From positions 1,214,459 through 1,278,458 of the forward strand of contig CM000435.1 of assembly GCA_000165345.1 (NCBI GenBank): a stretch of 64,000 nucleotides of DNA, read 5' to 3'. Shown here in pieces: positions 426-64,000 of this stretch. Made by a program: the position numbers and the translations under genes. Below the pieces are notes generated by a model. The model was not told where the DNA came from, searched no databases, and saw only the letters and a program-made list of their open reading frames with translations. The first letter of the stretch is position 1. Every line of letters starts with the position of its first letter.

Positions 426-1997
426 TTACTCGTCATCATCATCATCGTCAGCCTCATCTTCATCTTCACTCCCACCCTCCTCATCTCCATCGGAACTGCC
501 ACTACTTGAAGAATAAGACTCCTCATCATTTTCAAAGTCTTCGTCATCTTCATCATCACTTGGTAGGTCTTGCTCAAGAATAGACTTGGTTGATGATTCT
601 TTCTTAGAAGAATCCTGATCTTTTGATCTAGAAGTTGTTCTTCTAGATGAAGAATCAAGACTCTCCTGAAGATTTTTAATTCTGATATTCTTTTCTTGTA
701 AGAATTTTATGAGTGGATTATACTCAGCTTTATCAATACTTGTGAAACTGTAGTCACCTCCACCCCTAATTGTAATAGTTAATTCAAAGAATCTAGTTTG
801 ATTACCACCCATTCTTGAAAACTCAATATTCAAGATATCATCAAATCTAATTAATATTACAGGTTTTGTAATAAAAATGAAGCTACGATTAAGAGGATAA
901 AGTAGACCATCCTGAGCCTTATATGAGCATCTAATACAGTGGTACATAGATGCAGATCTGAAATCTCCTGGAACTATGATTGAGTGCCCTGTTAGGGACT
1001 TTAAAATACGAGTAACTATATCCCAGAATTTACCGGTCATTATAGGGGATAGCCCAGTGAACCTTTGAATTTCTTTTTCTGAAAGATTTAAAGGCATTTC
1101 AATATTCTCATCTTGTTGTGTATCAAATTGCATTACAACAAATGGGTATTTTGTGTTTCCTTGTCTCATTGGAGTTTCTAATGCTACTACTAGGTTAACC
1201 AAGGATGTACCAGGCCTTGGGAGTAGAAATAGTCTGGAAATTGATTGGAATAAGATTGTATAATCGAAAGATTTACCATGGAGTTTTAAGCAGTTAACCA
1301 AAACTTCAATTTCGTATCTACCTCTTGGAACCAATAAGTGAATATCATTCCAACGACAGACTTTGTCCATAGATCCACTAGATCCTATTCCTGTCAGCTT
1401 TAATAAATCAGATCTCAATTTTTCTGCTGATGACAAGGAATTTCCATCAAGGGAATTTTCTTGATTTGGTACGAATAAACGTATCTCCATTAATTCATCA
1501 CAATCTTCTCCTGCATTAACTCCTTCATTGAACTCCAAAACTAACTCTGATTTAGATGGCATTGCTATTTGATTAATATTAATACTCGGAACATACATCA
1601 TTACTTTGCCTTCATTACCTATACATATGGTATCATTGTGAATAGTTAAATCTCCCCAATTAATTCCTTTTGTATTCAGCTCCTTAGTCTCCAAATTAAT
1701 TCCATAATATGTCTCAAAATGGCTCTTAATTACACTATAATCTTCAGTCTTAAAACCTGTAAAGTGGATGCAATCCTTTTTTTCTCTGATAAATACTCTT
1801 AATTGACAGCTGCTATCCTCACAACTTGTTTGTATCCATTCAACTCCCATAACTTCCTCTGGTTTATAATGATAAGTTGCATTTGTTCTTCTATTCTTCC
1901 ACCCAAATAGTTCTTTACTTGCTTTAAATATTCCTTGGTCCTGGTAACCCAGCCCTCTAATATTTCCATAAGATAGTACTCCAGCGGTTGTCGCCAT
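426..1997 (-). CDS. SSRP1: FACT complex subunit SSRP1/Pob3 (structure-specific recognition protein)
   Basis: 523-aa ORF starting at ATG 1997. Blocks nearly identical to human SSRP1: LVPRGRYEIEV vs LTPRGRYDIRIY, LHGKSFDYTILFQSISRLFLLP vs LHGKTFDYKIPYTTVLRLFLLP, IVPGDFRSASMYHCIRCSYKAQDGLLYPL vs TVPGNFQGHSGAQCITCSYKASSGLLYPL. The C-terminus is an acidic Ser/Asp/Glu tail. Confidence 0.9.
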   Translation of the reverse strand: MATTAGVLSYGNIRGLGYQDQGIFKASKELFGWKNRRTNATYHYKPEEVMGVEWIQTSCEDSSCQLRVFIREKKDCIHFTGFKTEDYSVIKSHFETYYGINLETKELNTKGINWGDLTIHNDTICIGNEGKVMMYVPSININQIAMPSKSELVLEFNEGVNAGEDCDELMEIRLFVPNQENSLDGNSLSSAEKLRSDLLKLTGIGSSGSMDKVCRWNDIHLLVPRGRYEIEVLVNCLKLHGKSFDYTILFQSISRLFLLPRPGTSLVNLVVALETPMRQGNTKYPFVVMQFDTQQDENIEMPLNLSEKEIQRFTGLSPIMTGKFWDIVTRILKSLTGHSIIVPGDFRSASMYHCIRCSYKAQDGLLYPLNRSFIFITKPVILIRFDDILNIEFSRMGGNQTRFFELTITIRGGGDYSFTSIDKAEYNPLIKFLQEKNIRIKNLQESLDSSSRRTTSRSKDQDSSKKESSTKSILEQDLPSDDEDDEDFENDEESYSSSSGSSDGDEEGGSEDEDEADDDDDDE

Positions 1998-2394: not shown

Positions 2395-3525
2395 TTACTT
2401 GACAAAAAGAGAAATTGCTCTAATAATTTCTAAAGAGAGTGCAATACTTTGATCAAATGTATATTTTGATGAAATATTGCTAATATATCTGAGAATCTTG
2501 ACCACTCCATTTCTGGTATAATCAAAAATTTGTTTGAAGTGGATTTCTATATTAACAATAGGTCTTGCGAGTAGATCTATAAGATTATGACTAGGATTCA
2601 ATAATTCCATTGGCCAAGGGAAAGGCTTGCTATAGCTTGAAACTAAAACCCCATTTACAATTAAGTAGCCATCTGTTGTTAATGGAGCATACCTTCCCAC
2701 ATACTCGTAATTTTTTTGATTGCTGTTTACATTAGAAATTATCGAGACTTGTGTTACCCACCCAACTCGCTCTTTTGAATAGATAATTACTGAGTCACCA
2801 ACCCTAATATCCTTTGCTTGGATTGAAGTAAGTTTCTTTTTTTTCTCAAGTTGAGGAGTGACTTCAATTCCAATAGCTTTTTCAATTTGACTAGGATAAT
2901 AACAATTTCCTTCGTGTGGTTTTTCTCCAAGGTATTGTATGAATATTAGATGATTCGGAGAAAGAACCAGAGGTTTCTCCATCCCTAAATATTCTACTTG
3001 AATCCATTCATCATCCAAGTATATATTTTTATCTTTATGTAACATTATTTCAACTTTGCTGTACTTAAATTTCATTGTGTTAAGATCTCTAATTAAAACA
3101 TACTCTCCAATTCTTAAATCTTCCAACTTTATTTCTCCCCTTTCTCTAGTGATTACTAAGCTATTTCCTGGGAAACACAAATTATTTGATTGACTCTGAG
3201 CCCCACAATTTGGATTATAAGGATAATCATCCTCATCAAGTTCATTAGACAAGTAACCAATATTTATCAGTTGGCCTACACAGGAAGAGGGAAATGCTAA
3301 TGAAATGGCATTTGAAATAACATTCCCCCACCCAGACCTAAATCCGGTTCCTCCTGCTGACATTCCTGAAAATGTATCAAATATCGATTTGGTTCTAACT
3401 CGAATAAAACTTAGATTTGAATGAAATAAATCCACATTTTTGCGAGATTCTTTATTAAACCAGAATAATTCAACAAGTATAGTTAACCAGAGAAAGCAAA
3501 TAATTTTTATATTATTAACTTTCAT
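2395..3525 (-). CDS. Secreted Hint (Hedgehog/intein-type autoprocessing) domain protein
   Basis: 376-aa ORF with a hydrophobic N-terminal signal (MKVNNIKIICFLWLTILVELFWF). Hint block A is CFPGNSLVITRERGEIKLEDLRIGEYVLIRD (Cys nucleophile), block B is SPNHLIFI (the T/SxxH motif), and the C-terminal block is TTDGYLIVNGVLVSSY (Hedgehog has TxxGTIVVNxVLASCY). Confidence 0.7.
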   Translation of the reverse strand: MKVNNIKIICFLWLTILVELFWFNKESRKNVDLFHSNLSFIRVRTKSIFDTFSGMSAGGTGFRSGWGNVISNAISLAFPSSCVGQLINIGYLSNELDEDDYPYNPNCGAQSQSNNLCFPGNSLVITRERGEIKLEDLRIGEYVLIRDLNTMKFKYSKVEIMLHKDKNIYLDDEWIQVEYLGMEKPLVLSPNHLIFIQYLGEKPHEGNCYYPSQIEKAIGIEVTPQLEKKKKLTSIQAKDIRVGDSVIIYSKERVGWVTQVSIISNVNSNQKNYEYVGRYAPLTTDGYLIVNGVLVSSYSKPFPWPMELLNPSHNLIDLLARPIVNIEIHFKQIFDYTRNGVVKILRYISNISSKYTFDQSIALSLEIIRAISLFVK

Positions 3526-3769
3526 TTACTCAAACCAAACCTCAATATTTAGCTATATCATTAGATTAGTTAAAGTTACAAAAAAAATTTAATTAATAAA
3601 ACTCTCTGCATTCAACCAATATCAATCTGGCTATTTTTTAGTTTGATTTAATTATTAATACAACTCTCCTTCTAGAACTTGATTCCTATATTCTTCCTTT
3701 TTTTTAATCACTACCACATTTTTATTAAATTGTCACTTATTGAAATTTGTGAGTACACACATTCAACTA

Positions 3770-3797
3770 TTTGGCGCCACAATGCGGCGCCAAATTG
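3770..3797. promoter_or_regulatory. Paired inverted E2F-like boxes TTTGGCGCCAC-N6-GGCGCCAAATT upstream of the prenyltransferase-alpha gene
   Basis: Two GGCGCC cores 17 nt apart, about 115 nt upstream of ATG 3909, in an AT-rich intergenic region. Confidence 0.6.
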
Positions 3798-3908
3798 CCG
3801 GTACTTGAAAAGATCAAAAAGAATTTTTGAAAAGAAGTCAAGTGGAAAAAAATTACAAATAAATAAATAACTAGAATTGTAAGCAAAATTTATACAAACC
3901 TAGATTAA

Positions 3909-5612
3909 ATGCATGGCAGAGTGAAGAGCGAGCAGAAGGAACTTACTGAGGAGGAAAAGCAGTACATAGCAAGAGCAAAGCGGCTTTTTGATGAATGCAT
4001 AGAGTTAATTAATCAAGATCAAAAAGAGTCAACCTTTTCAGTAAAAACTTTGGAATTAACTGAAAAGATTTTGAAGATTAATACAGAAGTAGCAACTATG
4101 TGGAATTTCAGGAAAAGCTACATTATTTCTGAGCAAAGCAATACACAACTTATTGATAATATATTAAACAATGAATTAATATTGACAGAAAGTCTGTTCA
4201 AAAATGACCCAAAATCTTACAATCTTTGGTCAAATAGAGCCTGGTTACTTGAGTTTATTGTGAATCTTAAGGATGCTGACAAAATTCTACTTAAGGTTGA
4301 AGAAGATTATTTGAAGAATATTTCAAATTTTGATAACTTAAATTATATACAACCATTTAAAGAGTCCTTAGCTAAGTACAGCAATATAAGATTAAAGTTA
4401 TTGATAAATGAATTAGAGCTTTGCAATAGGTTATTTGAAGTAGATGATCGCAATTTCCATTGTTGGAGACATCGATCATTTGTTCTTTGTTGTTTAAGAT
4501 ATATTTCTGTTATTATATCATGGAACACCTTTCTAGAAGAAATGCAACTACAAGAACTAGAATTCCTTAATAGAATGACAGAAACCAATTTTTCAAATTA
4601 TTCTGCTTGGCATCATAGGACTTTACTTGCGTTTGGACACCAATTTAACAGCATAAAAGACTTTAATAGAGAAGCAGAGTTTGTGCATACAGCAATTTAT
4701 ACTGAACCAAATGATCAGAGTATTTGGCAATACTATTTTTGGCTAATGGGTGACTTTCTTCCTAAGATACTCTTTAAAAATGAACAATTTAAAGTAACTC
4801 CATCATTTCATATCAAAGATTTACAGGTTGAATTTCCTGAAAACAAAGATGATCAAATAGTAATTCACATTAAATTTTCATTACCTTGTTTGATTAATAG
4901 TTCTACATCAAGCCTATCAATAGAATCTGATGATGGTTCCACAATCACTTTTGAAAAAGGTACCTGGGAACCAATTTATGAGGACTATGCAAGCATCTAT
5001 GGCTTTTTTAACTCCAAACTAAACTCTGATTTTGACAATAAACGTAAAAAACGAACTGCAACTTGGAGTTATTCTTTATCTCTAAAAGAAAATTCCCAAG
5101 ATGAAATTAGATCCATCACTAATTTACTAAGTAATTCCCCATCCATTTTTCTAATAATATCTGCTGCACATTCTGATACAACATATACAAACACTCCATC
5201 TTGGAACTTAAATGACCCAGAATATAAAAATGAAACGTTTTCATCACTCAGAATTAGTCCAAAATTAATTTTGGATGAATACAAATTCTACAGTTTTAAT
5301 ACACGTACAAATGACAATATAGTTACTTGTAAATATTATTTTCAGTCAGAATCTTCCAAATCTCAACTTAGAGAATGGATTGGAATTCTTCAAAGTGAAT
5401 TTGACCTTTTAAAGAGCATACAAGAATTAGAGCCTGAATGTAAATATCCTATAATAGCACTTAAGTATGTAAATGACATCTATCATCTATGCTCTCCGCC
5501 AGATATTGCGGAGAATGAAAAAATGAAAGTGGATCCAGAAATGATAAAACTGCTACCAACTATAGATCCTCTAAGAAAATTATACTATAGTGAAAAGTTC
5601 AATATTGCATAA
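3909..5612 (+). CDS. Protein prenyltransferase alpha subunit (PPTA repeat protein; likely Rab geranylgeranyltransferase alpha)
   Basis: 567-aa ORF from ATG 3909. It carries repeated PPTA-type motifs: MWNFRKSY, KSYNLWSNRAWLL, RNFHCWRHRSFVL, NYSAWHHRTLL, NDQSIWQYYFWL. A long C-terminal extension suggests the RabGGT alpha type. Confidence 0.7.
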   Translation: MHGRVKSEQKELTEEEKQYIARAKRLFDECIELINQDQKESTFSVKTLELTEKILKINTEVATMWNFRKSYIISEQSNTQLIDNILNNELILTESLFKNDPKSYNLWSNRAWLLEFIVNLKDADKILLKVEEDYLKNISNFDNLNYIQPFKESLAKYSNIRLKLLINELELCNRLFEVDDRNFHCWRHRSFVLCCLRYISVIISWNTFLEEMQLQELEFLNRMTETNFSNYSAWHHRTLLAFGHQFNSIKDFNREAEFVHTAIYTEPNDQSIWQYYFWLMGDFLPKILFKNEQFKVTPSFHIKDLQVEFPENKDDQIVIHIKFSLPCLINSSTSSLSIESDDGSTITFEKGTWEPIYEDYASIYGFFNSKLNSDFDNKRKKRTATWSYSLSLKENSQDEIRSITNLLSNSPSIFLIISAAHSDTTYTNTPSWNLNDPEYKNETFSSLRISPKLILDEYKFYSFNTRTNDNIVTCKYYFQSESSKSQLREWIGILQSEFDLLKSIQELEPECKYPIIALKYVNDIYHLCSPPDIAENEKMKVDPEMIKLLPTIDPLRKLYYSEKFNIA

Positions 5613-63842: not shown

Positions 63843-64000
63843 AACCTGGTTGATCCTGCCAGTAGTCATATGCTTGTCTCAAAGATTAAGCCATGCATGT
63901 CTAAGTATAAACTTTTATACGGTTAAACTGCGAATGGCTCATTATAACAGTTATAGTTTACTTGATATGTTTACTAGGGTACCGAGTCCGAATTCGTAAC
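63843..64000 (+). rRNA. SSU (18S) rRNA, 5' end (partial; gene continues beyond the window)
   Basis: AACCTGGTTGATCCTGCCAGTAGTCATATGCTTGTCTCAAAGATTAAGCCATGCATGTCTAAGTATAAACTTTTATACGGTTAAACTGCGAATGGCTCATTATAACAGTTATAGTTTACTTGATA is the universal eukaryotic 18S 5' end. It differs by about 1 nt from Cryptosporidium 18S over this stretch. Confidence 0.9.

Follow-up and report, generated by a model that had tools for sequence, protein, structure and literature searches.

We have analysed a gene of the apicomplexan parasite Cryptosporidium parvum which encodes a Hedgehog-type Hint protein and is located in a stretch of 64,000 nucleotides (the window in what follows; GenBank assembly GCA_000165345.1, contig CM000435.1, positions 1,214,459 to 1,278,458 of the forward strand). 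It is a complete single-exon Hog precursor gene on the minus strand at 2395..3525, running from an ATG start to a stop codon at 2395-2397 and encoding 376 residues. A previous interpretation made from the letters alone (the sequence-only reading) had proposed this listed open reading frame as a secreted Hint protein of an apicomplexan, and re-translation of all part coordinates bears out its extent, strand and start. The assignment to an apicomplexan was also correct, as the 376-residue product is identical to the C. parvum protein EAK90482.1 / QOY40857.1, the gene, CPATCC_003762, being called on C. parvum chromosome 8 (CP141124.1, ~1.258 Mb). The GenBank name of EAK90482.1 is 'hedgehog-type HINT domain protein, possible animal horizontal transfer, signal peptide', and one C. 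hominis record bears the name 'QUA-1 protein'. The C. parvum and C. muris proteins were described as aCp Hog and aCm Hog in a survey of Hog proteins, with a signal peptide and a conserved region of ~100 residues containing two cysteines, and with Hog motifs J and K, the motif J Cys being replaced by Ser in some cases (Bürglin 2008, BMC Genomics 9:127, PMC2362128). Since both the GenBank name and this survey precede our work, the protein is already known and is not a discovery: aCp Hog and EAK90482.1 are the same protein, with no sequence difference. Indeed, that the window protein is aCp Hog, a secreted Hedgehog-type Hint precursor, is nearly certain, as the Pfam, profile and fold matches reported below agree on this identity with the public annotation and the publication. 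The small increments of the present analysis are a map of the catalytic residues, the constraint on the cargo, the relatives of the cargo and the genus-wide synteny.

The Hint assignment is evident from the profile searches. The Pfam Hint family PF01079 matches residues 110-299 with E=1.8e-21 and 77.2 bits, to be compared with a gathering score of 29.7, which is far beyond chance, and no other Pfam family scores above its cutoff on the 376-residue protein: Hint_2 (PF13403), the family of bacterial-type and bacterial intein-like (BIL) domains, stays below its cutoff (22.2 bits against 28.4) and covers residues 117-197 only. All orthologues and relatives considered here also carry PF01079. When the orthologues were combined into a profile, this matched the Sonic hedgehog precursor 7e2i with E=6.7e-12 and the Drosophila Hedgehog C-domain with E values of 4.7e-10 (6tyy) and 6e-9 (1at0). 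The three sequence blocks on which the sequence-only reading relied are all present, the Hint start motif CFPGNSLVITRERGEIKLEDLRIGEYVLIRD corresponding to residues 117-147, the SPNHLIFI motif to residues 189-196 and the C-terminal Hint block TTDGYLIVNGVLVSSY to residues 283-298.

Structure prediction gave a comparable picture. The whole protein was modelled with AlphaFold using a 14-sequence alignment, and the resulting model has a mean predicted local distance difference test score (pLDDT) of 45.7, with values of ~22-29 for the N-terminal domain. As this model is too poor, only residues 111-376 (266 residues) were refolded, using 13 sequences that included distant relatives, and searched: the mean pLDDT rose to 66 and reached 75-94 across most of the Hint core, values that derive from 13 sequences only. 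Comparison of this model with the PDB using Foldseek ranked 6tyy and 1at0 first and second, with E values of ~1e-10, a target template modelling score (TM) of 0.84 and 22% identity; a Tetrahymena BIL2 domain, one bacterial BIL domain and many inteins followed at lower ranks (6-16% identity, E=5e-9 and weaker). The modelled fold is thus closest to the Drosophila Hedgehog autoprocessing domain, and the profile and structural matches together delimit a Hint fold at residues 117-299 (2629..3177, minus strand). With respect to Drosophila Hedgehog the fold contains an insertion of ~40 residues (residues ~197-236, DNA ~2818-2937, minus strand), modelled with low confidence, which harbours a nearly invariant Cys208 and a G-x-x-P-x-x-G-x-C pattern; in the gregarine-like relatives the insertion at this position is shorter or different.

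We have established the catalytic map by reading the profile alignments against the five active-site residues of Hedgehog. Cys117 (3175..3177, minus strand) is invariant and aligned with Hedgehog Cys1, and is the predicted nucleophile, the predicted scissile bond being Leu116/Cys117; the tetrapeptide C117-F-P-G is invariant in 14/14 aligned sequences. The counterpart of the Hedgehog TxxH motif (Thr69, His72) is S189-P-N-H192 (2950..2961, minus strand), in which the hydroxyl side chain is kept and both Ser189 and His192 are invariant. The slot of the general base, Asp46 in Hedgehog (Asp303 in the full-length protein), is occupied by His163 (3037..3039, minus strand), which is invariant in Cryptosporidium and in three distant relatives designated P0013, P0021 and P0025. 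In the alignment, His163 pairs directly with His46 of 6TYY, a Drosophila protein engineered by a 'general base swap' (D46H). According to secondary sources, this variant still autoprocesses in cells and accepts a wider range of sterols, and a His in the Asp46 slot supports the autoprocessing of Drosophila as well as human Hedgehog; because of this, the general-base slot holding a noncanonical His163 is plausibly functional, by analogy. The fifth position, that of Hedgehog Cys143 (Cys400), is occupied by Ser297 (2635..2637, minus strand) in the alignments to 1at0 and 6tyy, so that the 'SCY' of motif J reads 'SSY'; this slot is Ser throughout Cryptosporidium, while P0021 and P0025 have Gln and P0013 has Cys. 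Overall, no variation is seen at Cys117, His163, Ser189 or His192 among 13 Cryptosporidium sequences and the three distant relatives and, as judged from the alignments, four of the five catalytic positions are conserved in workable form. The final Asn and Cys residues which the sequence-only reading had wished to see aligned are absent, as expected for a Hog domain: no intein-type His-Asn followed by Cys, Ser or Thr was found at the end of the Hint fold, where the sequence reads VLVSSYSKPF.

The Hint fold is followed by a C-terminal extension of 77 residues (residues 300-376; 2398..2628, minus strand), somewhat shorter than the ~85 residues previously estimated. A helical structure is predicted for it with low confidence, which makes it a candidate for an adduct or sterol recognition region. 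Motif K has been reported in this tail (Bürglin 2008, PMC2362128), and a helix-loop-helix has been proposed for the sterol-recognition region of Hedgehog, which the three helices modelled by AlphaFold in the tail loosely recall. A Kyte-Doolittle analysis reveals no transmembrane-grade hydrophobicity in these 77 residues, and the tail is, after the signal peptide, the least constrained domain of the protein, with a ratio of nonsynonymous to synonymous substitution rates (dN/dS) of 0.25-0.37. A separate observation concerns the C. muris orthologue P0011 (L008 5001-6245), which has an extra, very hydrophobic C-terminal stretch of ~40 residues (YYLTIAYIIKLYLVIFLISNIFTMIFINKIYY) that is lacking in its close relative C. 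serpentis and in all other species; this extension could be a transmembrane tail or an artefact of the gene model or of read-through.

At the other end of the protein, residues 1 to ~24 (MKVNNIKIICFLWLTILVELFWFN; 3454..3525, minus strand) form a probable signal peptide. The sequence-only reading, Bürglin 2008 and the GenBank name all call it a signal peptide, and no other segment of the protein is strongly hydrophobic, the Kyte-Doolittle hydropathy being >1.6 here in a stretch centred on residues 12-15. It is present in all orthologues and is poorly conserved (38% identity, dN/dS 0.4-0.8). Between the signal peptide and Cys117 lies a segment of 92 residues (residues 25-116; 3178..3453, minus strand), the peptide predicted to be released. 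The sequence-only reading had described it as ~85 residues rich in Gly, Ser and Asn, and in size and composition (36% Ser/Asn/Gly) this is roughly adequate; however, it is not a low-complexity linker but the best conserved part of the protein, a cargo domain with two invariant cysteines. Mean identity across the genus amounts to 72% for cargo residues 25-116, 66% for the Hint domain and 58% for the tail. In the conserved core of the cargo (residues 40-116; 3178..3408, minus strand) neither Cys82 nor Cys107 varies, and an acidic ELDEDDYPYNPNC motif is present, the invariant features being FRSxWGNVIS, FP.SC (Cys82), N.GY, EDDY and N.NC (Cys107). Comparing C. parvum with C. meleagridis and C. ubiquitum, which is the basis of all the dN/dS values given here, yielded ratios of 0.08-0.11 for the cargo core, 0.10-0.17 for the Hint domain and 0.15-0.23 overall. 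The cargo peptide is more tightly constrained than any other part of the precursor and is under strong purifying selection.

The cargo is not a Hedgehog signalling domain, as the sequence-only reading had anticipated: residues 1-109 yielded no Pfam match at E<=1, and the cargo profile found no match among the solved structures of the PDB. A search of 1.84 billion representative proteins with a profile of the cargo core recovered three convincing relatives beyond Cryptosporidium. P0021 (381 residues, from a Logan/ENA transcript assembly) and P0025 (437 residues, from transcript runs SRR25454955 and SRR25454952) have the cargo followed by CFPG and a full Hint domain with PF01079; P0023 is a fragment of 181 residues from the blastogregarine Siedleckia nematoides (EukProt), in which the cargo is followed by CFPE and the sequence ends ~30 residues into the Hint domain. 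Judged from these alignments, the relatives extend the previous report, according to which the upstream region is similar to nothing else (Bürglin 2008, PMC2362128). Two further word-indexed homologue searches, covering the best 8000 candidates and recovering neither P0021 nor P0023, added nothing and gave no named gregarine or chromerid orthologues. Other candidates were set aside. P0022 (a Runella 'choice-of-anchor D' protein, matched in 18 stretches), P0026 (a bacterial repeat protein, 5 stretches) and P0024 (a repetitive open reading frame) are probably sums of weak repeat matches, and for P0013 the alignment to the cargo was forced, the extracted segments showing that the cargo domain is not shared. 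We note that P0022 and P0026 are both large repeat proteins of Bacteroidota and that their multiple matches all fall on positions 36-75 of the cargo profile, the repeats of P0026 having the form DPSTCLGTDGKI; these matches probably reflect a chance resemblance of a short Cys/Gly/Asp-rich stretch summed over the repeats, a distant kinship between the Cys-containing cargo core and a bacterial surface repeat being the less likely alternative.

Orthologues of the gene are found in every Cryptosporidium species sampled, with identities down to 42-43% in C. muris and C. serpentis, and C. parvum and C. muris share the gene order RPL24e, prenyltransferase alpha, Hint, SSRP1, eIF2alpha, so that the gene must be older than the genus. 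A tblastn search revealed no second copy in the 64-kb window. The housekeeping neighbours, identified by their Pfam matches, are the FACT-complex subunit SSRP1/POB3 (426..1997, minus strand), with an acidic tail rich in Ser, Asp and Glu, and the alpha subunit of a protein prenyltransferase (3909..5612, plus strand), probably that of Rab geranylgeranyltransferase. The latter and the Hint gene are transcribed divergently from an intergenic region of 383 bp (3526-3908). The distant relatives P0013, P0021 and P0025 share 25-30% identity with the C. parvum protein and carry PF01079. P0013, at 30% identity, is encoded on contig L007 (run SRR30260935) and combines the canonical Cys of 'SCY' with a His in the Asp46 slot. 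Bases 1-22 of this contig (CTCAAGGCCAATTTGGCTCAAG) are one mismatch away from the dinoflagellate spliced leader, with a relic CTCAAG in front, and P0013 is probably a dinoflagellate Hog protein. At the far end of the window, the 5' end of a eukaryotic small-subunit ribosomal RNA (SSU rRNA) gene is observed on the plus strand at 63843-64000 (Rfam RF01960, 125 bits, model positions 1-168), running off the window, preceded from ~62000 by a very AT-rich, (TA)n-rich spacer with a GC content of 0.23 and a GC skew of +0.48; the last ~30 bases of the window (GGGTACCGAGTCCGAATTCGTAAC) do not resemble the C. parvum 18S sequence.

The protein can thus be compared with several known systems. With the C-domain of animal Hedgehog (1AT0, 6TYY, 7E2I) it shares the fold at TM 0.84, the CFPG start with the nucleophilic Cys, the T/SxxH motif and a filled general-base slot; the signal peptide and a cargo N-terminal to the Hint domain are common to both as well, and probably also a C-terminal tail of ~75 residues, predicted here to be helical with low confidence. 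It differs from animal Hedgehog in its cargo, which has no Pfam match and is not the Hedgehog signalling domain, in the replacement of Asp46 by His (as in D46H), of Thr69 by Ser, of Cys143 by Ser and of the Gly at position -1 by Leu, in the extra ~40-residue insertion in the Hint fold, and in having no detectable match to the sterol-recognition sequence. The same modular plan is found in nematode warthog, groundhog and quahog proteins and in other protist Hog proteins (dinoflagellates, red algae, moss and the choanoflagellate Hoglet), the common arrangement being a signal peptide, a lineage-specific Cys-containing cargo and then the Hog domain, which includes an 'adduct recognition region' (Bürglin 2008, PMC2362128). 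However, the cargo of these nematode and protist proteins is unrelated to that of Cryptosporidium, which in the cargo-profile search was found only in early-branching apicomplexan-like lineages. Inteins and BIL domains have in common with C. parvum Hog the fold of the Hint superfamily and the first step, an N-to-S acyl shift; in contrast, C. parvum Hog lacks a C-terminal motif for Asn cyclisation, has no extein downstream and is not built for splicing, and its matches to them are weaker than to Hedgehog.

The precursor has a Hog-type Hint domain with a workable catalytic set, an N-terminal hydrophobic leader and a constrained cargo at the position of the Hedgehog signalling domain; that it is secreted and cleaved, which adduct it takes up and what the peptide does are inferred. 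Our overall reading, to which we assign a probability of about 0.7, is that of a secreted Hog precursor which follows the Hedgehog plan with a different cargo and which cleaves itself to free a small N-terminal peptide. In the proposed sequence of events, the signal peptide would bring the precursor into the endoplasmic reticulum (ER), where Cys117 would attack the carbonyl of Leu116, an N-to-S acyl shift aided by Ser189 and His192 yielding a thioester. This would then be resolved by a second nucleophile activated by His163 and possibly positioned by the helical residues 300-376, releasing a peptide of ~8-10 kDa that ends at residue 116, probably disulfide-bonded, as the functional product. 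If the nucleophile were a sterol, as in Hedgehog, the peptide would gain a lipid anchor. From the conserved residues we regard self-cleavage at L116/C117 as likely. By analogy with Hedgehog the adduct could be a sterol, a suggestion that we put forward only tentatively and hold to be on the improbable side: in its favour are the invariant His of the sterol-activating slot and the fact that the helical tail has been kept, whereas the missing Cys143 and the absence of any sequence resemblance to the sterol-recognition region count against it.

Several points weigh against this overall reading. Ser297 takes the place of a residue that Sonic hedgehog needs: replacement of Cys143 by Ala or by Asp abolishes its autoprocessing, and Cys143 has been proposed to form a branched thioester intermediate. 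As Cys143 is essential there and Ser is found here, the canonical second step may not operate, and in P0021 and P0025, the two most similar relatives outside Cryptosporidium, the slot even contains Gln. Position -1 to Cys117 is Leu, as opposed to the Gly conserved in Hedgehog. In the tail, the three helices are predicted with low confidence only, positions 162-213 of the Pfam Hint profile, its sterol-recognition part, are unmatched, and the SCYA and HWY motifs of the Hedgehog sterol-recognition literature are not seen in the sequence. Furthermore, no experimental work on the C. parvum Hog protein was found in the literature searched. On the other side, the motif J Cys is replaced here and in many non-animal Hog domains (Bürglin 2008, PMC2362128), and therefore Cys143 defines animal Hedgehog and not Hog domains in general.

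Several of these same observations bear on two readings in which the cargo is not lipidated. It is possible, though in our estimate not probable, that cleavage at L116/C117 takes place and that the thioester is resolved by water or by a small non-sterol nucleophile, leaving a soluble, unlipidated peptide and a tail that serves, for example, in folding or in targeting to the ER or Golgi. This would be consistent with the unmatched sterol-recognition positions, with the change of Cys143 to Ser and with the tail being the least constrained domain after the signal peptide, as well as with the fact that 'adduct recognition region' is a neutral term for Hog proteins other than Hedgehog, in which cholesterol is unproven (Bürglin 2008, PMC2362128). 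However, the known role of the residue in the general-base slot, here an invariant His, is to activate the sterol hydroxyl, and a helical extension of ~77 residues with the size and position of a sterol-recognition region is kept in all orthologues and distant relatives. A more radical possibility, which we consider unlikely, is that the Hint domain is catalytically dead and acts as a structural or binding module of an uncleaved secreted or ER protein. The Leu at position -1 in place of Gly points in this direction, as does the Ser (or Gln in the relatives) in a slot whose mutation prevents processing of Sonic hedgehog; yet the Sonic hedgehog mutants reported are Ala and Asp, no C143S being found in the literature searched, and replacements of the motif J Cys are widespread among non-animal Hog domains (Bürglin 2008, PMC2362128). 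A dead enzyme is difficult to reconcile with the invariance of the Cys, the SxxH motif and the His of the general-base slot throughout the genus and in relatives at 25-30% identity.

The remaining alternatives concern the origin and the class of the element. A recent horizontal acquisition from an animal host is what the GenBank product name suggests ('possible animal horizontal transfer'), and it would fit with animal Hedgehog proteins being the best matches among solved structures and with Hint domains being reported absent from other apicomplexans. Contrary to this, HINT domains are also reported to be common to chromerids, Cryptosporidium and Gregarina, and dinoflagellates, like many other protists, possess Hog proteins (Bürglin 2008, PMC2362128). 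Moreover, the gene is syntenic throughout the genus, and its N-terminal domain has no animal counterpart in the Pfam and cargo-profile searches. The transcript of P0013, at 30% identity, has a 5' end like the dinoflagellate spliced leader. Finally, the cargo is fused to a Hint start (CFPE) in the blastogregarine S. nematoides, and its fusion to Hint there and in P0021 and P0025 argues that the fused gene is old in the part of the tree that comprises Cryptosporidium and gregarines and was not gained recently from an animal, so that we regard such a transfer as very unlikely. As for an intein or bacterial-intein-like element undergoing splicing or C-terminal cleavage, the presence of inteins and BIL domains among the fold matches (E=5e-9 and weaker) and the weak Hint_2 match of 22.2 bits could be invoked; but this score is under the 28.4-bit cutoff, the identity to inteins is only 6-16%, and the fold ends in VSSYSKPF, lacking the His-Asn and subsequent Cys, Ser or Thr of an intein. 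The N-terminal 'extein' would moreover consist of a signal peptide and a small Cys-containing domain, and what follows the fold is more like an adduct-recognition tail than a host protein; this explanation can be given practically no credence.

Returning to the self-cleaving secreted Hog precursor, the constraint on its cargo, which exceeds that on any other part of the protein, and the presence of this cargo in a blastogregarine suggest a role conserved among early-branching apicomplexans and lost by coccidians and blood parasites. The central biochemical question raised by these results is that of the self-cleavage and the adduct of a non-animal Hog protein with a His in the general-base slot and no Cys143. 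Apicomplexans reportedly do not synthesise cholesterol but obtain it from their hosts; a sterol, if used, must for this reason be host-derived. By analogy with D46H Hedgehog, a natural His general base may relax the choice of sterol. We can therefore envisage, as a speculative and rather doubtful extension, that Cryptosporidium and its gregarine-like relatives attach host sterol to a small, strongly conserved secreted peptide by a Hedgehog-style reaction, generating a lipid-anchored parasite ligand or surface factor at the host-parasite interface. If this were true, protein sterylation would for the first time have been demonstrated outside animals, and in an organism auxotrophic for sterols, and such a sterol-modified secreted peptide would tie host lipid scavenging to parasite signalling or adhesion.

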